64,000 bases of DNA from Brevundimonas sp. (lineage in GTDB: Bacteria > Pseudomonadota > Alphaproteobacteria > Caulobacterales > Caulobacteraceae), in the NCBI RefSeq assembly GCF_036676055.1, contig NZ_JAKFDS010000004.1, forward strand, positions 6,094 through 70,093. The letters run 5' to 3'. Every line of letters starts with the position of its first letter. Position 1 is the stretch's first letter. Below the pieces are notes generated by a model. That model did no database searches and was not told the origin of the DNA. It saw nothing but the letters and a program-made list of their open reading frames with translations. This document shows positions 14,586 through 56,841 of the stretch, piece by piece. Position numbers and translations under genes: made by a program.

Positions 14586-15422
14586 CTAGCCGCCCCTGAA
14601 CAGCGACAGAATGATCTGCGGCGCCTGGTTCGCGATCGACAGCGATTGCGCTCCGAGTTGCTGCTGCACCTGCAAGGACTGAAGCCGTGCGCTTTCCTTG
14701 GCGAGGTCAGCGTCCACAAGATTGCCGATTCCCGACTCCAGAGTGTCGACCAGCCTGGTCACAAAACCGGTGTGGGCCGCGATCTGCTTGGCTTGGGCGC
14801 CGAGCCCGCCGAGTGCGGCGTTCAACTGGGTGATCGAATCGTCCAGCCGGGTCAGGGCCTGGGTGGCGCCGGTCAGGCTCAGCAGACTGTCCGATGTCGA
14901 AAGCTCGATGATGGTCCCGCCGAGGCTCAGGTCGATGGCGGTCAGGGTGACGAAGGATGTGGCGTCGGCGTTGGCGAGGAAGGTGATGCCGCTCGTCAGG
15001 GAACCGTTGAGGATATTGCCGCCGTCGAAGGCCGCATTGTCCACGGCCGAGGCTATCGCCTTCAGCAACGCCTGGAAGTCGGCGTTCAGCAGCTCACGCG
15101 ACTGCGTCTTCAGCGACGAATCCTTCGCCGCGACGACCTTTTCCTTGAGCTGGTTGAGGAGATCGGAGACCGATTCGCCGGCCGAAAGGGCCACATCGGC
15201 GATGGACGTCGCCCGGTCGAGGCTCTGTTTGACTGCGCTGAGCGCCCCCACATCCGCCCGCTGCTGCTGGGCGATGGCCCAGACGGCCGCATTATCCTTG
15301 GCGCCCTGGACCTTCAGTCCGGTCGAGATGCGGCTCTGCACATCGCCCAGGCGCTCGTTGGTGCGCGTCAGGTTCTGCAGCGCGATCGCGGCGGAAGTGT
15401 TGGTGTGGACGCTGTTCGTCAT
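14586..15422 (-). CDS. Flagellin (Caulobacter-type, about 28 kDa)
   Basis: It has conserved flagellin N- and C-terminal helices (MTNSVHTNTSAAIALQNL...; ...QQQLGAQSLSIANQAPQIILSLFRGG). The internal ATG at 15422 is chosen. Confidence 0.9.
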   Translation of the reverse strand: MTNSVHTNTSAAIALQNLTRTNERLGDVQSRISTGLKVQGAKDNAAVWAIAQQQRADVGALSAVKQSLDRATSIADVALSAGESVSDLLNQLKEKVVAAKDSSLKTQSRELLNADFQALLKAIASAVDNAAFDGGNILNGSLTSGITFLANADATSFVTLTAIDLSLGGTIIELSTSDSLLSLTGATQALTRLDDSITQLNAALGGLGAQAKQIAAHTGFVTRLVDTLESGIGNLVDADLAKESARLQSLQVQQQLGAQSLSIANQAPQIILSLFRGG

Positions 15423-17029: not shown

Positions 17030-17350
17030 TCAGGGCCGGAGGCGGGGGCGGGGCCCCTGCCCCTCGCGCCAGCGATCCTGCATGGCCCGCTCGGCGAGCA
17101 GCGTCCCGACCGCCAATTCGCGGGCGGTCTCGCACGCCACAAGGGCCGCGCCGCGGGCGACATAGGCGACCTCGAGATCGCCCAGGGTCGGCGCCTCAGG
17201 CAGGCGCTCGAGGACGCACGGTCGGATCGCCGCCTCCGGCAGCGCCAGTCGCGGCGGGATCACAGACGGAGGGGGCGAGGCGGCACAACTCGCCATCATG
17301 GCGAAGGAGGCGGTCGGCGCGAGCCGGATCCAGAGGTGTCGAGGCATCAT
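17030..17350 (-). CDS. o-spanin (Rz1-like outer-membrane lipoprotein), overlapped with the i-spanin gene
   Basis: Starting at ATGATG (17345-17350), preceded by GGAG, gives MMPRHLWIRLAPTASFAMMASC (lipobox-like). A Pro-rich mature part with further Cys follows. The gene starts inside the i-spanin gene in another frame and extends 166 nt beyond its stop. Confidence 0.6.
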   Translation of the reverse strand: MMPRHLWIRLAPTASFAMMASCAASPPPSVIPPRLALPEAAIRPCVLERLPEAPTLGDLEVAYVARGAALVACETARELAVGTLLAERAMQDRWREGQGPRPRLRP

Positions 17351-17651
17351 GGGCGCTCCGGGCCTGGGCCGTGGACTGCGCGGTCGCCTGGACGACCGCC
17401 ACGGACTGTCTGTGATAATGTTCAAGGCGGCGGGCCTGGCCCGCGCTTCCTTCGGTTTCGAGCCGGCGGGCGTCAGCGTCCGCCTGCGCCGTCGACGCCC
17501 GCGTCTCCGCCGCCCTGAGACGCCGCCCGGAAAGGTCGAAAGGGTCCCAACGCAGGCCGAGCCCCCTTCCGAGGATCGCCGTCACGAGGACCGCCGCCAG
17601 CACCAGCGCCATCCAGCCGAGGGGGGGCGGCAGGCGAAGCAGGGCCTTCAC
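17196..17651 (-). CDS. i-spanin (Rz-like, N-terminal TM plus coiled-coil periplasmic domain)
   Basis: The GTG start at 17651 overlaps the endolysin stop (GTGA). The protein has a TM segment (WMALVLAAVLVTAIL) followed by an Ala/Arg/Gln-rich helical region. Confidence 0.6.
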   Translation of the reverse strand: MKALLRLPPPLGWMALVLAAVLVTAILGRGLGLRWDPFDLSGRRLRAAETRASTAQADADARRLETEGSAGQARRLEHYHRQSVAVVQATAQSTAQARSAHDASTPLDPARADRLLRHDGELCRLAPSVCDPAATGAAGGGDPTVRPRAPA

Positions 17652-18031
17652 GGGAACACCTTTCTGTCGAGCTCGAAATGCGGGCCATCCCGCAGGGTCG
17701 GCCAGTCGCCGCCCCACACGATGGCCGTCCCCTGGCGAACTGCGGCCGCCTTGAAGGCCGCCGCGATGCGAGGATAGAGCGGCCAGTCCCAACGCACCTG
17801 GCCGTCGACCAGCGCCGCTACATCGATGGCGTGTCCGGTCAGGTGCCGCGAGCGCCTCGTGCGGCTGGCGCCGGCGCGCACCAGGGCGGCCTGCCGCTGT
17901 GGCATGCGAAGCCCCTCGGTGATCATGAAGTCGACCGGGCTCAGCGCGATGGCCTCGTGCGCCAGGGCCGCCAGCCGCGGGTGCACGCCGGCGAGGCGCC
18001 TCAGCGACCGTTCCGAGAGACGGAAGGCCAT
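17648..18031 (-). CDS. Peptidase M15 (VanY/L-alanyl-D-glutamate peptidase-like) endolysin
   Basis: The 127-aa protein carries the zinc motif SRHLTGHAID (SxHxxGxAxD) and a C-terminal DGPHFE. Its start overlaps the holin stop (ATGA). Confidence 0.8.
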   Translation of the reverse strand: MAFRLSERSLRRLAGVHPRLAALAHEAIALSPVDFMITEGLRMPQRQAALVRAGASRTRRSRHLTGHAIDVAALVDGQVRWDWPLYPRIAAAFKAAAVRQGTAIVWGGDWPTLRDGPHFELDRKVFP

Positions 18032-18309
18032 CAGCCGCCCTCCCCGTCCAGCGGCGGCCGCAGCGAGCGCAGGCTGGCGATCAACTGCTGGGCCGTCGGG
18101 GCCACCAGGTACAGGATCATGGTCAGGGCCAGCAGCGACATCAGCCCCTTGGCCAGCGGCAGCGCCGCATCCGGCGGGGTCAGGTGGAGCAGCCGATCCA
18201 GCAGCAGCCAGGCCGCGCCGGTGCTGGCGAAGACATACAGCCGACGCCAGAGCCAGCGGCCTTCCGCCAGCGGCGACGGCGCAACCGGGGATTCGGTGTC
18301 CTTGATCAT
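18031..18309 (-). CDS. Holin-like small membrane protein (two TM segments)
   Basis: The 92-aa protein has hydrophobic segments LYVFASTGAAWLLLDRLL and GLMSLLALTMILYLVAP and a charged C-terminus. It lies immediately upstream of the endolysin. Confidence 0.55.
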   Translation of the reverse strand: MIKDTESPVAPSPLAEGRWLWRRLYVFASTGAAWLLLDRLLHLTPPDAALPLAKGLMSLLALTMILYLVAPTAQQLIASLRSLRPPLDGEGG

Positions 18310-18470
18310 CGGTCGTCCTCCTGATCGTCGGGAGGACGGCCGCCGGCGCGGCGATCCGCGCCCGCCTCGAGGTAGAGGTCGTCAGCGGACAGCCGGAACG
18401 GGACGTCCCAGGTCTCGAGTTCAAGCAGCGCGGGCGCAGCTTCGTCGCGGAGTCGGGTCATCGCGGTCAT
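18306..18470 (-). CDS. Small acidic protein (54 aa) of unknown function
   Basis: The sequence is MTAMTRLRDEAAPALLELETWDVPFRLSADDLYLEAGADRRAGGRPPDDQEDDR. It is bracketed by ATGA overlaps with the tail-fibre stop and the holin start. Confidence 0.45.
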   Translation of the reverse strand: MTAMTRLRDEAAPALLELETWDVPFRLSADDLYLEAGADRRAGGRPPDDQEDDR

Positions 18471-19948
18471 CCTTGGGCGATCAGCCAGACGCGGCCGTTC
18501 GCGCCGGCCCCGCCCGCCCCGCCGGCCGTCTCCCCGGCCCCGCCTCCGCCGCCGCCGCCGCCCGCGGCCCCTCCATCGCCGCCGTCGTGGCCCCCGCCGG
18601 ACGCCGACGCGCCCCCGCCGCCGCCGCCTCCTCCGGACCAATGGAGCGTCGGATGTGGCGCATTCACCCCGGAATCCCCGGCGGTGCCTGATCCACCCGG
18701 GCCGCCCACCGCTTTGAGCGTCAGCGCGCCGCCGTCTCCGCCGGCTCCGCCGGCGCGCGCCATCCCGGAGCCGTCGAGCCCGCCGCCGCCACCGCCCCCG
18801 CCCGGCGCTTCCGGGTGGTCGAGGGTCCCGCCCTCGCCCCCGGCGGCGGTGACGCTGGACCCGCCTCCGCCGTTGGAGTGTTGCGTCCCCGCGCCCGCCA
18901 CGCCCGCCACGCCGCTGACGGCGTCACCCGGACTACCCCCGCCGCCGCCCCTGGCGACAAGGAGGGCGGTCGTGCCCAGATGGACCGTCGAATCCCCGCC
19001 CGGGGCTCCCGTCCCGGCGACGCCGCCCGTCCCGCCGGCGCCGATGCTTACAGCGAGCCCGACGGCCAGGTCGTCAGCCGGCCAGATCGCCCGACTGACG
19101 CCGCCCGCGCCGCCGCCGCCGCCTCCGAAGCGGGACCCGGAAGCACCGAAAGCTCCTGCTCCGCCACCTCCGCCGCCGCCGACGACCACGGCTTCGATGG
19201 TCCTTGCCCACGCCGGAACGGCGTAGCTTCCGCTCTCCGTCATGGCCGTCACCGTCCGTCGGCCGGCGCCCCGATCGAAACTGATCCGTCCCGACGCGCG
19301 ATCGACGGACCAGACATCGCGCCAAGCCGAGCCGTCGGCGCTGACCTTCAGCCTCAGATCATCGTCGCCGATCAGCCCGAGCTCGGCCCGACCGCCCCAG
19401 CCGCTCTGGAACAGCAGCGACAGGACGTCGGCCGGCCCCTCCTTGTTGAAGGTCAGGCGCAGGTCGCCGTCGCCGCCCTCGCCCGCCCCGAGCGCTGTCC
19501 ACAGCGCCTTGTTGAGCCGCGCCGCGAACGGATTGGTCGCATCCGCCGTCGTGCCGACGCCGAGTCGGGTCAGGTTCTGGATCGCCTCCAGACGTTCCCC
19601 GAGCGGGACCCAGACGCCGCCGTGGCGCACCACAAGCTCGCCGGAGTCGAGCACAAGGGCGACAAGGCCATCCCCGGTCTGGATCTCGCTCCAGCCGCTG
19701 CCTTCGGCGCGGAGCAGCGCCCCCTCGGATCGACCGGACCAGGCGGGGCCGACCGCGCCGGCGGGCAGAATAAACAGCACCCCGTCTGTCGGCGTGACCG
19801 GCTGGGTCGCCTCCGTGCGGCTGACGACGGCGGTCTGGACCAAAGCGTCCAGCCGGGTCAGGGCCTCGTTCAAGGTCACATGCTTCTGCATCTGGCCGGC
19901 TGCCAGATAGGGAAGGCCGAGGCGGGCGCTGTGGTCGTCGCTCATCAC
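18467..19948 (-). CDS. DUF2793 domain protein with C-terminal glycine-rich domain (phage tail-fibre-like)
   Basis: The N-terminus ARLGLPYLAAGQMQKHVTLNEALTRLDALV matches the DUF2793 signature as I recall it. The C-terminus has YAVPAWARTIEAVVVGGGGGGGAG followed by long Gly runs, typical of phage glycine-rich tail-fibre domains. Confidence 0.7.
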   Translation of the reverse strand: MMSDDHSARLGLPYLAAGQMQKHVTLNEALTRLDALVQTAVVSRTEATQPVTPTDGVLFILPAGAVGPAWSGRSEGALLRAEGSGWSEIQTGDGLVALVLDSGELVVRHGGVWVPLGERLEAIQNLTRLGVGTTADATNPFAARLNKALWTALGAGEGGDGDLRLTFNKEGPADVLSLLFQSGWGGRAELGLIGDDDLRLKVSADGSAWRDVWSVDRASGRISFDRGAGRRTVTAMTESGSYAVPAWARTIEAVVVGGGGGGGAGAFGASGSRFGGGGGGAGGVSRAIWPADDLAVGLAVSIGAGGTGGVAGTGAPGGDSTVHLGTTALLVARGGGGGSPGDAVSGVAGVAGAGTQHSNGGGGSSVTAAGGEGGTLDHPEAPGGGGGGGGLDGSGMARAGGAGGDGGALTLKAVGGPGGSGTAGDSGVNAPHPTLHWSGGGGGGGGASASGGGHDGGDGGAAGGGGGGGGAGETAGGAGGAGANGRVWLIAQG

Positions 19949-19950
19949 AA

Positions 19951-19973
19951 ATCTCCGGAAAACTGTCGGAGAT
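19951..19973 (-). promoter_or_regulatory. Hairpin sequestering the Shine-Dalgarno sequence of the tail-fibre-like gene
   Basis: A 7-bp stem, ATCTCCG (19951-19957) / CGGAGAT (19967-19973), has a 9-nt loop. On the mRNA, the arm proximal to the ATG (19948) contains GGAG. Confidence 0.35.
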
Positions 19974-20102
19974 CAGTGTGCGGCTGTCCGGCCCTACGGC
20001 GCGCTCAGGACGCTGACCGGAGCACGATGTCGTTGTGGATCATGATGTTAGTCGGAAAAATTAGGATGGCGGCACATTAACTGCCAGCAGTCGGAAACAC
20101 CG

Positions 20103-45630: not shown

Positions 45631-46773
<1,143 letters not shown>

Positions 46774-53400: not shown

Positions 53401-56400
53401 ATGCAGTTTCAGCGCCTTCGGCTCGTCGGTTTCAAGTCCTTCGTCGATCCCGCCGAGGTGCATATCGAGCCGGGCCTGACCGGCGTGGTCGGCCCCAACG
53501 GCTGCGGCAAGTCCAATGTGCTGGAGAGCCTCCGCTGGGTCATGGGGGCGAATTCGGCCAAGGCCATGCGGGGTCAGGGCATGGACGACGTCATCTTCGC
53601 CGGCGCCGCCAACCGCCCGCCGCGAAGTCACGCCGAAGTCTCGCTGACCATCGACAACGCCCAGCGCAGGGCGCCGCAGCCCTTCACCGACAGCGCTATC
53701 ATCGAGGTCTCGCGCCGCATCGACCGGGGCCAGGGCTCGACCTACCGGATCAACGGCAAGGAGGTGCGGGCGCGGGACGTGCAGCTGCTGTTCGCCGACG
53801 CCTCGACCGGCGCCAACTCCCCGGCCCTCGTCCGTCAGGGACAGATCAGCGAGCTGATCGCCGCCAAGCCCCAGAACCGCCGCCGCATCCTCGAGGAGGC
53901 GGGCGGCGTCGCCGGCCTGCACACCCGGCGGCACGAGGCCGAACTGAGGCTAAAGGCGGCCGAGACCAATCTGGAGCGGCTGGACGACATCGGCCGCGAG
54001 CTGGAGACGACGCTGACGCGGCTGAAGCGCGAGGCGCGGCAGGCAGAGAAGTACAAGAAAATCTCGGCCGAGATCCGCGCCCTGCAGGCGGCCCTGCTGT
54101 TCGTGCGCTGGAACGACGCCCGGGCGGCGGCGGCGGCGGCGGCGAAGGAGTTGGCCGAGGCCGACCGGGCGGTGCTGGAGGCGACGACCGCCTCCGGTCG
54201 GGCCCAGACGGCCTCATTGAACGCCCAGGACGCGCTCAAACCCGCGCGCGAGGAAGACGCCGTGGCCGGGGCCTTGCTGCACCGCGCCTCGCTGGAACGC
54301 GATCGGCTGGACATGGCGGAGCAGGCGGCGCGGGCCGAGGTCGAGCGACTGACGGCCGAGGCCGCGCGCATCGCCGCCGACATCGAACGCGAGATCGCCA
54401 TGGCCGGGGACGCCGAAAGCGAGCTCACGCGGCTGGGCGAGGCGCTGGAGGCCGTACAGGCCGAAATGGCCGCCGCCCCCGCGCGCGGACCGGAGCTGGA
54501 GACGGCTTTGGCCGCCGCAGAGGACGCCCGCAAGGCGGCCGACGCCGAAGTTGAACGGGTCGCCGGAGCGGTGGCCGCCGTAGAGGCGCGGGTTTCCGCC
54601 GAGACCGCCCGCAAACGCGACGCCGAGGCGCGGGTCGCCCGGGCGGAGGCGCAGCTCTCCTCCGCGAAAGGGGAGCGCGACGCCCTGGGGCCGCTGGAAT
54701 CGCCGGAAATCGAGGCCGCGAAGGCGGCGCTGAACCAGGCGGAGGCGCAGCTGGCGGCGGCGCGAGCGGGCGTCGAGGCGGCGGAGACGGAGCGCGGCGA
54801 CACGGCCCGCGCCGAGCAAGAGGCGCGGCAGGCGGCGCGGTTGGCCGAGGATCGGCTGGGCCGGCTCCAGACGGAAGCGCGCGGCCTCGCCCAGTTGCTG
54901 GTGCAAGGCAAGCGCGAGCATCCGCCGGCGCTGGACCGGGTCCAGGCCGAAAAGGGCTATGAGGCCGCGCTGGCAGCGGCGCTGGGCGACGATCTGGACG
55001 CGGCGCTTGACGCCCGGGCGGCGGCCTACTGGTCGGGGGCGAAGGTCCCCTCTCCGTCATGGCCGGACGGAGTGGAGCCGCTGATCGACCATGTCTCGGC
55101 CCCCGAACAGCTGGAAGCCCGTCTGGCGCTGTGCGGCGTGGCGGGACGCAGCGGGATCGAGGCCTTGGCGGGCGCATTGCCCGTCGGGGCGAGGCTGGTC
55201 ACCCGGGAAGGCGACCTGTGGCGCTGGGACGGTTTTGTGCAAAGGGCCGAGGCCCCGCGCCCGGCGGCGGTGCGGCTGGCCCAGCGAACCCGGCTGGCGG
55301 AGCTGGAAGCGGAGATCGACGAGGGCAAGCCGGCGCTGGAGGCGGCGCAGGCCGCACTGAAGGCGGCGACCGAGGCCTTCCGCGCCTCGGAAGAGGCCGT
55401 GAAGGCCGCGCGCGCCGCGCCCTTCCCGCTGGACAAGGCCGTGACGGCGGCGCGCGACGAGGTCGAGGCCCTGGGTCGTGAGCAGGCGCGCCGGGAGGCC
55501 CGGGCCCAGGCGCTGGACGAAAGTCTGGCGCGACTGACAGCCGAGGTCGAGGCGGCGCGGGAGGCGCTGACCGAAGCCGAAGGGGTCGAGGCGCCGTCCG
55601 AGACGCTTGAGGCCCTGCGCGCCGAACTGACGGCGGCGCGGTCGGCGGCGGACGCAGCGCGCGGCGGGGCGGCGACGGCCCGGGTGGAGCGCGACGCCGA
55701 GGCTCGGGAGGTCGCCGGACGGCAGGTTCGACTGGACGGGTTGAATCGGGAACGCGACGGCTGGACCGCACGGGCGAAGGACTCGAAGGCGCGGATCGGG
55801 GCGCTGGGGAAGGACGCGGAGAAGACGGCCGCGCGGCTGAAGGCGGCCTCGGACGCGCCGGAGCAGCTGGCGGCCCAGCGGTCATCGCTGCTGGACGCCC
55901 TGACGGCTGCCGAGACCCGGCGCAAAGCGGCGGCCGACGCCCTGGCGATGGCCGAGGGTCAGGCGGCCGAGGCCGACCGGGCCGCGCGGGCGGCGGAGGC
56001 GGCGGCCTCTTCGGCGCGCGAGGCCCGGGCCGGACTGGCGGCGAGGGCGGAGGCGGCGACCGAGAAGATGGCGGAGACCGAGGCCAATCTCCGCGAGACG
56101 GCCCAGATGTCGCCGGAGGAGCTGGGCCAGAAGCTGACCGACGACGCCATCGCCCGCCCGCCTGACGCCGCCGGCGCCGAGAGCCTGCTGTACGGTCTGG
56201 AGCGCGAACGCGAGGCGCTGGGCGCGGTCAATCTGCTGGCCGAGGAAGAGGCCAATGAGTACGGCGACCGGCTGCAGACCATGAAGGTCGAGCGCTCCGA
56301 CCTGACGAACGCCATCGCCCGGCTTAGGGACGGCATCGACGAACTGAACGCGGAAGGCCGCGAGCGGCTGCTGGCGGCGTTCGACATCATCAACGACAAC

Positions 56401-56841
56401 TTCAAGACCCTGTTCGAGGCGCTCTTCGGCGGCGGCCAGGCGGAGCTGAAGCTGGTCGAGAGCGATGATCCGCTGGAGGCGGGCCTCGAGATCTACGCCT
56501 GCCCGCCCGGCAAGCGTCTGTCGGTGATGAGCCTGATGTCGGGCGGCGAGCAGGCGCTGACGGCGGCGGCGCTGATCTTCGCCGTCTTCCTCGCCAATCC
56601 GGCGCCGGTCTGTGTGCTCGACGAGGTCGACGCGCCGCTGGACGACGCCAACGTCGACCGTTTCTGCCGCATGCTGGATGAGATGCGAAAGCGTACCGAC
56701 ACCCGCTTCATTGTCATCACCCATAACCCGGTGACCATGAGCCGGATGGACCGGCTGTACGGCGTCACCATGCCGGAACGGGGGGTGAGCCAGCTGGTCA
56801 GCGTCGACCTGAGCCAGGCCGAAGAGATCGTGGCGGCCTAG
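53401..56841 (+). CDS. smc: Chromosome segregation protein SMC
   Basis: The 1146-aa protein has a Walker A motif (GPNGCGKSN), long Ala/Glu/Arg-rich coiled coils, a signature motif ([10 protein letters not shown]) and Walker B ([10 protein letters not shown]). Confidence 0.95.

Follow-up and report, generated by a model that had tools for sequence, protein, structure and literature searches.

A 64-kb stretch of a Brevundimonas sp. chromosome (RefSeq assembly GCF_036676055.1, contig NZ_JAKFDS010000004.1; the whole stretch is hereafter called the window) contains a six-gene operon that codes for a phage-type tail fibre and a set of lysis proteins. We regard this operon as probably the detached 3'-terminal fibre-and-release module of a Brevundimonas gene transfer agent (GTA) that resembles RcGTA, the GTA of Rhodobacter capsulatus. 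The operon spans positions 17030–19945 on the minus strand, where six intact open reading frames (ORFs) encode a DUF2793/glycine-rich fibre, a small acidic protein (p54), a holin-like protein, an M15 endolysin, an i-spanin-like protein and an o-spanin (Table 1). A first-pass annotation, made by reading the DNA without database searches, had described six minus-strand genes with intact frames and proposed that they are a candidate accessory locus of a GTA or another domesticated phage-derived particle. The ORF coordinates bear out the former statement, and the latter gains support from the domain assignments, conserved synteny, selection on the genes, relatives of the fibre that are linked to the GTA gene g15, and eight genomes known from the literature.

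The fibre matches DUF2793 (PF10983) at 7.9e-21, above the Pfam cut-off, and Gly_rich_2 at 1.2e-9, and consists of an N-terminal DUF2793 attachment/knob region (about residues 1–235) followed by a C-terminal glycine-rich domain. Residues 9–139 align with PDB chain 8gtc_S from the baseplate-tail complex of roseophage R4C (3e-10). An AlphaFold model of the fibre, with a pLDDT of only 65, retrieved solely phage tail-tip and fibre proteins in Foldseek, namely the Bxb1 tail tip (9d93, 1e-6), the Pam3 fibre (8e-4) and R4C. Residues 1–45 are 90% identical across 54 species, whereas the non-glycine positions of the C-terminal part are 44% identical; this is the pattern of a predicted conserved attachment end and a predicted variable receptor-binding end, as usual for receptor-binding fibres. 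By its domain content, the protein is assigned to the Rcc00171/DUF2793 family of GTA fibres. Rcc00171 is the tail fibre of RcGTA and binds the megatron protein (PMC5026251, PMC7296036), and co-evolution of DUF2793 with the genes of GTAs has been reported for 225 of 293 genomes (PMC10883770).

Apart from the module, the ORFs of the window, searched with Pfam up to ~48 kb, yielded no phage gene, and the fibre therefore needs a particle that is encoded elsewhere. A GTA would be the obvious core-genome candidate for the partner particle of a lone fibre with a conserved docking end. Complete g2–g15 clusters have been listed for eight Brevundimonas genomes, B. vesicularis among them (Kogay et al. 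2024, PMC10883770, Table S3), and RcGTA-like clusters in Brevundimonas have also been reported by Tomasch et al. 2022. B. vesicularis genomes carry the fibre-lysis module (loci L066 and L084). In Caulobacter crescentus, expression of the distal fibre gene CCNA_02456 rises from 21 to 20,545 reads per kilobase per million mapped reads (about 1000-fold) on gafYZ induction (PMC9632790).

Outside the genus, relatives of the fibre directly follow g12–g15 homologues of RcGTA-like siphophages. A g15 alignment scan of IMG/VR gave 80 GTA-like or phage loci; in about 55 of them, tblastn (E <= 1e-3) places a relative of the window fibre immediately after g15. A scan of IMG/VR with the fibre itself gave seven loci at 44–55% identity, five of which have the fibre directly after g15; the closest relatives with a named source come from Methylobacterium, Lutibaculum and Nitratireductor (Rhizobiales). 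Residues 4–219 of the window fibre are 55% identical to the post-g15 fibre of the Methylobacterium GTA cluster. In that cluster (Methylobacterium nonmethylotrophicum, L193, 13893–16716), g15 with its GTA_TIM, Phage-tail_3 and Rcc01698_C domains is followed by the DUF2793 fibre gene, an ORF of 117 codons, a GH108 endolysin gene and a Phage_holin_10 gene. Lutibaculum baratangense (L229) likewise has a GH108 homologue downstream of its fibre gene, and the 80 IMG/VR loci include at least seven with this arrangement. Adjacency of rcc00171 and rcc00555 homologues at the 3' end of some GTA clusters was noted anecdotally by Shakya et al. 2017. The first-pass annotation had taken a combined fibre and lysis unit to be undescribed; this does not hold for adjacency as such, given the report of Shakya et al. 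and the Methylobacterium and Lutibaculum loci, and it appears to stand for the detached, genus-wide version with lysis genes of phage P2 type.

The four genes downstream of p54 are predicted to be a canonical Gram-negative lysis cassette of a holin, an endolysin and two-component overlapped spanins, with a lytic function. The endolysin matches Peptidase_M15_4 in Pfam (5.1e-12) and the PHROG endolysin family phrog_465 (6.8e-55), and its relatives in the PDB are Serratia ChiX (1.2e-35) and phage L-Ala-D-Glu peptidases. Its zinc-site motifs SRHLTGHAxD and DGPHFE (SxHxxGxAxD and PHFE) are kept in 52 species, and we assign it on these grounds to the M15 LAS-type L-alanyl-D-glutamate endopeptidases. 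The DUF2793 and M15 domains named in the first-pass annotation are both upheld by these matches. The holin-like protein has two hydrophobic segments (about residues 20–41 and 52–71) and a charged C-terminus, and the transmembrane segments are strongly conserved. Profile hidden Markov model (HMM) searches of Pfam and PHROG gave no match for this protein or for the i-spanin, and the former is a putative holin by context, as it precedes the endolysin and is homologous to the same-placed ORF in P2-like contigs. The i-spanin-like protein comprises an N-terminal transmembrane segment, a periplasmic Ala/Arg-rich domain and C-terminal cysteines, with the motifs RGLGFRWDP and ELCRLAP-VC conserved, and its homologue in one P2-like contig (L092) matches the Rz-like spanin family phrog_214 (7.8e-5). 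HMM matches of the o-spanin are weak (LysC, 5.7e-5, under the Pfam cut-off; Rz-like spanin phrog_456, 3.9e-4); its lipobox cysteine (..ASC) and two more cysteines are near-invariant in 49 sequences. NCBIfam gave zero matches for all six proteins of the operon.

The origin of the lysis genes differs from that of the fibre. Six IMG/VR contigs (L087–L092; 29–48 kb, GC 0.65–0.67) carry homologous holin, M15 endolysin, i-spanin and o-spanin genes in the same order, with identities to the window proteins of 35–41%, 72–76%, 38–44% and 43–47%, respectively. L092 is a P2-like prophage with genes for a portal, terminases, a scaffold, a major head protein, head completion, tail X and an H-like fibre. The nearest relatives of the lysis cassette belong to P2-like prophages of this kind, from high-GC alphaproteobacteria, which are plausibly the donor lineage of the chromosomal cassette. 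Judged by these homologies, the module is a mosaic in which a GTA-type fibre is joined to a P2-type lysis cassette, and the most fitting reading of the Brevundimonas unit is that of the 3'-terminal part of an RcGTA-like element, detached from the head-tail cluster and with P2-type lysis genes.

To describe conservation, one genome per GTDB species was scanned, which gave 80 fibre loci, all from Brevundimonas or Caulobacteraceae; gene presence was counted in the 55 loci that are complete from fibre to flagellin. The fibres of the 80 loci are 58–77% identical to that of the window (best 77%), and named homologues at 67–91% identity are almost all from Brevundimonas. The fibre gene is found at one site, after the genes for the CCA-adding enzyme, EEP and DUF4112, in 80/80 recovered species, so that a comparison of synteny, suggested in the first-pass annotation, places the module at the same chromosomal position throughout. 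Downstream, the lysis genes and then a flagellin cluster (flagellin, flaG, flaEY) follow wherever the contig is long enough. The fibre is intact in 53 of the 55 loci, and the holin, the endolysin and the spanin pair are present in 54, 52 and 47, respectively.

Purifying selection acts on the module much as it does on its neighbours. The ratio of nonsynonymous to synonymous substitution rates (dN/dS), calculated by NG86, is 0.32 for the N-terminal half of the fibre, 0.52 for p54, 0.41 for the holin, 0.19–0.21 for the endolysin and 0.45–0.51 for the spanins, compared with 0.26–0.46 for four flanking genes (CCA enzyme, EEP, DUF4112 and flagellin), where the method is rough, dS is probably near saturation and the values are comparative only. 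The module is an old, vertically inherited and selected unit. It displays the pattern of inheritance expected of a GTA accessory locus, which comprises a stable chromosomal site, purifying selection and no genes for integration or replication. Synteny, intact genes, overlapping junctions and neighbour-like dN/dS together rule out a decaying prophage, in line with the first-pass annotation, and damage to the genes is rare.

The genes are tightly joined. In the window, the fibre/p54 and p54/holin junctions are 4-nt ATGA overlaps (18467–18470 and 18306–18309), and the endolysin/i-spanin junction is a GTGA overlap (17648–17651) in which the GTG start of the i-spanin gene lies over the stop codon of the M15 gene. 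These three overlaps had been given correctly in the first-pass annotation; the holin/endolysin junction, which it had also read as ATGA, is instead a 1-nt overlap in TGATG (stop 18033–18031, start 18031–18029). The o-spanin gene, in another reading frame, begins at 17350 within the i-spanin gene, which ends at 17196; the overlap takes in the 5' part of the former and the 3' end of the latter. The 5' boundary had been placed at 19973, which proves to be an in-frame stop farther upstream; the fibre gene starts at the ATG at 19945, and this start is kept in all relatives. Among related loci, the fibre/p54 overlap (ATGA or GTGA) occurs in 55 of 56, the window included, and the p54/holin overlap in 50 of 55, again including the window, while the holin/endolysin overlap is 4 nt long in 36 loci and 1 nt long in 15, the window being one of the latter.

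A p54-like ORF of 48–60 codons fills the gap between the fibre and holin genes in nearly all 55 loci and carries the motif LLD-E-WD-P-RL...DDPEDDR. Neither an HMM match in Pfam, PHROG or NCBIfam nor a homologue or family outside the genus-wide set was detected for p54. The protein may be a fibre chaperone or a lysis regulator.

Two further observations concern the fibre and endolysin genes. In 22 of 82 loci (e.g., L013, L014, L019, L020 and L030), the contig stops within the glycine-rich half of the fibre gene. The GGC-rich repeats there are where assemblies break, and the operon is therefore often split or missed in draft genomes and metagenome-assembled genomes. A longer, divergent variant of the M15 protein (about 155 aa, 38% identity) is present in L031 and L050.

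Table 1. Genes of the fibre-lysis operon and features of its 5' region (window coordinates)
Feature	Position	Strand	Size or remark
Tail fibre	18467-19945	-	492 aa
p54 small acidic protein	18306-18470	-	54 aa
Holin-like protein	18031-18309	-	92 aa
M15 endolysin	17648-18031	-	127 aa
i-spanin-like protein	17196-17651	-	151 aa
o-spanin	17030-17350	-	106 aa
Operon 5' intergenic region, DUF4112 stop to fibre ATG	19946..20102	-	candidate promoter region
Inverted repeat ATCTCCG-N9-CGGAGAT	19951..19973	-	3' arm = fibre Shine-Dalgarno sequence

The region upstream of the fibre gene contains a conserved element. Its proximal block, CAGACTGATCTCCGAC...CGGAGA, is almost invariant across species although intergenic, whereas the distal part is kept within clades only; the conserved ACTGATCTCCGAC block is part of the same 5' region. 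The CAGACTGATCTCCGAC-loop-CGGAGA block lies 4–8 nt ahead of the fibre ATG and can fold the Shine-Dalgarno sequence into a stem of 6–7 bp. The inverted repeat recurs at the same position in the Brevundimonas loci (L002–L086) with a spacer of variable length (ATCTCCG-N7-11-CGGAGAT), and in about 1.5 Mb of related loci it was found nowhere but directly upstream of the fibre ATG. The predicted hairpin has a minimum free energy of -17.1 kcal/mol (z = -2.1) and 91.8% of cells paired in an alignment of 47 distinct species; covariation is weak, and the covariation test on these species is uninformative because the sequence is too invariant. The inverted repeat may be a hairpin that sequesters the Shine-Dalgarno sequence, and thus a translational gate, or a palindromic operator.

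A scanner found no sigma-70 consensus upstream of the operon, and inspection by eye and scanner for CtrA, IHF and sigma-70 sites revealed nothing consistent across clades. We also looked for the 5' element elsewhere by searching IMG/VR with ACTGATCTCCG-N5-12-CGGAGA. The 31 matches are about the number estimated by chance, and the closest of them (L212) precedes an unrelated ORF of 111 codons; the candidate was discarded. An insert of ~1.45 kb separates the DUF4112 and fibre genes in about 38–40 of 82 related loci, whereas the window, with a gap of 158 nt, is without it. In L004 (8433–9718), the insert shares the strand of the fibre gene and codes for a sigma factor of the extracytoplasmic function (ECF) type and an anti-sigma factor of the RskA type; this pair may be a clade-specific regulator of the operon.

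The operon is flanked by the DUF4112 gene on one side and by a flagellin gene (Flagellin_N/C in Pfam) on the other. The first-pass annotation had correctly described both flanks as chromosomal and named the DUF4112 gene; its flagellin enhancer is the flagellin gene itself. Other genes of the window have housekeeping functions, for example PhoH, LspA, SSB, RecN, BamD, Prs, CcrM and SMC. The CcrM-type DNA methyltransferase (N6_N4_Mtase and RAMA domains; 45694–46773, plus strand) is typical of Caulobacterales and agrees with the taxonomic placement. As had been stated earlier, the surroundings lack signs of an integrated element: there are no tRNA genes across the 64-kb window, no flanking direct repeats around the module were found in it, and neither an integrase nor any other phage gene, structural genes included, was found among its ORFs, for which the Pfam search extended to ~48 kb and beyond which only SMC (53401–56841) was identified, from its translation. 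A high-GC stretch at 54–56 kb was suspected to be a second glycine-rich phage gene and was dismissed when its translation proved to be SMC. The base composition of the module is broadly host-like, again as first described. Its GC content (0.70–0.75 vs ~0.69 for the window) is slightly raised through Gly, Ala and Arg codons, and GC at third codon positions is 0.77–0.91 in its genes and 0.80–0.90 in the neighbours. A 29-nt stretch of the fibre gene (19838–19866) is 90% identical to one in a flagellin gene (14832–14860), and both encode ALTRLD; the likeness is probably due to chance plus codon bias.

Several results weigh against assigning the operon to a GTA. In a search with C. crescentus GafZ as the query, every named source among the best 120 matches was Caulobacter. 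None of the 80 IMG/VR g15 loci is Brevundimonas-like (fibre identity to the window <=58%), and those with names belong to Rhizobiales. The lysis cassette is not homologous to rcc00555/rcc00556 of RcGTA but to cassettes of P2-like prophages, and we infer its recruitment to a GTA from linkage only. The lysis half is also dispensable in some lineages, because the spanin pair is absent from 8 of 55 loci (L002 of B. alba, L031, L043, L050, L056, L057, L069 of B. intermedia, and L074) and the endolysin is absent or broken in 3 of 55 (L038, L056 and L062) while the fibre gene remains, itself frameshifted in L062. The roughness of the dN/dS values given above belongs with these points. As for regulation, no GafY consensus motif for scanning was found in the literature searched.

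Among the other explanations, the one that fares best, though we consider it improbable, is that the lysis cassette was domesticated for a job unrelated to GTAs. It would then bring about the programmed release or secretion of proteins, DNA or vesicles by a subpopulation, in the manner of ChiWXYZ of Serratia marcescens or of the endolysins of explosive lysis, with the fibre as cargo or a leftover passenger. That the best solved relative of the endolysin is ChiX, a component of the ChiWXYZ cassette, that a full holin/endopeptidase/spanin set is under selection without nearby structural genes, and that the lysis genes come from P2-like prophages rather than from GTA lysis genes all speak for this explanation. 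However, the first and most tightly coupled gene of the operon encodes a siphophage/GTA fibre whose relatives follow g15 in five of the seven closest cases, and if there were no baseplate to dock on, the conservation of its 45 N-terminal residues would be difficult to account for. Chitinase or other cargo genes do not adjoin the operon, and the fibre is kept where lysis genes have been lost.

Still less probable is use in trans, with the module supplying not an RcGTA-like GTA but another phage-derived particle (a tailocin, for instance) or a phage, either resident or acting as a helper. In favour of this, fibres and lysis are late functions common to phages in general, and P2-like prophages whose lysis cassette is homologous occur in hosts of similarly high GC content; yet P2-like elements have their own H-type fibre and lysis genes, and DUF2793 fibres were tied to g15-type baseplates in the contexts examined. 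Vertical inheritance at one site throughout the genus suits a partner in the core genome, not sporadic prophages.

Two last explanations are very unlikely. An inert prophage remnant that has so far escaped decay would account for a short phage-derived island without an integrase and for occasional frameshifts or deletions (L062, L073, L056 and L038), but not for one site in 80 species at 58–77% protein identity, dN/dS well under 1 and close to that of the neighbours, conserved catalytic, transmembrane and lipobox residues and overlapping junctions, or the lack of an att site and a tRNA. A flagellum-associated unit for peptidoglycan remodelling is suggested by the position of the operon, which immediately precedes the flagellin cluster in the same orientation, with flagellin, flaG and flaEY adjoining in every genome that has downstream sequence; a holin, spanins and a DUF2793 fibre, however, do not accompany flagellar peptidoglycan hydrolases, P2-like prophages contain direct homologues of the cassette, and in several species other genes put ~2–7 kb between the module and the nearest detected flagellin gene.

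We return to the reading of the operon as a fibre-and-release module of a GTA, for which a mechanism can be proposed; that the operon belongs to the GTA regulon, that the fibre docks to the baseplate of the GTA, that the cassette lyses cells and what p54 and the hairpin do are all predictions. When the GTA regulon fires in a subpopulation of cells, a single transcript would start upstream of 19945, and its genes would be translated as a coupled chain through the stop/start overlaps. The fibre, perhaps chaperoned by p54, would attach through its conserved N-terminus to the megatron (g15) baseplate of particles whose genes lie elsewhere in the genome. The holin would then permeabilise the inner membrane, the M15 endopeptidase would cleave the L-Ala-D-Glu bond of the peptidoglycan stem peptide, and the i-/o-spanin pair would disrupt the outer membrane. 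The conserved stem that occludes the Shine-Dalgarno sequence of the fibre gene may add a translational check. That a GTA is released in this way, by a holin-endolysin-spanin cassette captured from a P2-like prophage and fused through stop/start overlaps to the fibre gene, possibly gated by the hairpin, with lysis as a swappable plug-in, is a proposal to which we give about an even chance.

Comparison with RcGTA (R. capsulatus rcc00171 and rcc00555/rcc00556) reveals shared and distinct features. In both cases, the fibre belongs to the DUF2793 family, and chromosomal loci apart from the head-tail cluster, with neither integrase nor replication genes, supply the fibre and lysis functions. In R. 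capsulatus, however, the fibre and lysis genes form two loci and the endolysin has been described as a putative lysozyme, whereas in Brevundimonas the two sets are joined in one coupled operon, the endolysin is an M15 endopeptidase, the holin is a different one, a spanin pair is present and the C-terminus of the fibre is glycine-rich. No spanins are mentioned in the RcGTA literature that we searched. The GTA clusters of Methylobacterium (L193) and Lutibaculum (L229) resemble the operon in that lysis genes follow the fibre on one strand and the N-terminal region of the fibre is 54–55% identical. There, the unit is attached to g15 and comprises GH108 (with Phage_holin_10) and no detectable spanins, whereas the Brevundimonas unit is detached, with DUF4112 on one side and the flagellins on the other, and its P2-type lysis genes are not homologous to those of the attached units.

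In C. crescentus, a member of the same family (Caulobacteraceae), a DUF2793 fibre homologue is likewise distant from the GTA cluster. This bacterium is without holin and endolysin homologues and lyses via the CARD-NLR-like system LypABC, the final effector of which is unknown; GTA and lypABC occur together in only four Caulobacter species. Brevundimonas, in contrast, has a complete canonical cassette beside the fibre gene. P2-like (Peduovirinae-type) prophages share with the operon the order holin–endolysin–LysB/LysC, homologous sequences and overlapped spanins, but their cassette has the head-completion/tail X genes on one side and the tail completion genes on the other, within a full element of 30–48 kb, whereas that of Brevundimonas stands alone behind a siphophage/GTA-type fibre and p54. 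ChiWXYZ of S. marcescens is also a chromosomal, domesticated set of holin, endopeptidase and spanins, and its ChiX is homologous to the endopeptidase of the operon. Unlike ChiWXYZ, the Brevundimonas cassette is joined to a tail-fibre gene and has neither chitinase genes nor genes for other cargo beside it.

The literature searched contains no description of the Brevundimonas fibre-lysis operon or of any GTA with spanins. GTA accessory loci and occasional adjacency of fibre and endolysin genes are already known; what appears to be new is a unit that is detached, occurs throughout the genus and has a P2-type M15/holin/spanin cassette.

The way in which GTA-producing cells lyse is under active study; in R. 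capsulatus, a holin and an endolysin serve this purpose. The operon provides a concrete and readily testable candidate for GTA release in Caulobacterales, and it suggests that GTA lysis modules have been replaced non-orthologously during domestication, here by one of the P2-prophage type. If this reading is true, the last step of particle assembly, addition of the fibre, and lysis of the producer cell would be expressed as one unit, a natural case of a host-range determinant translationally coupled to lysis, and the Brevundimonas GTA would be the first shown to use spanins. The lysis plug-ins of GTAs would then include a lysozyme and holin in Rhodobacter, LypABC in C. crescentus and a P2-type cassette in Brevundimonas.

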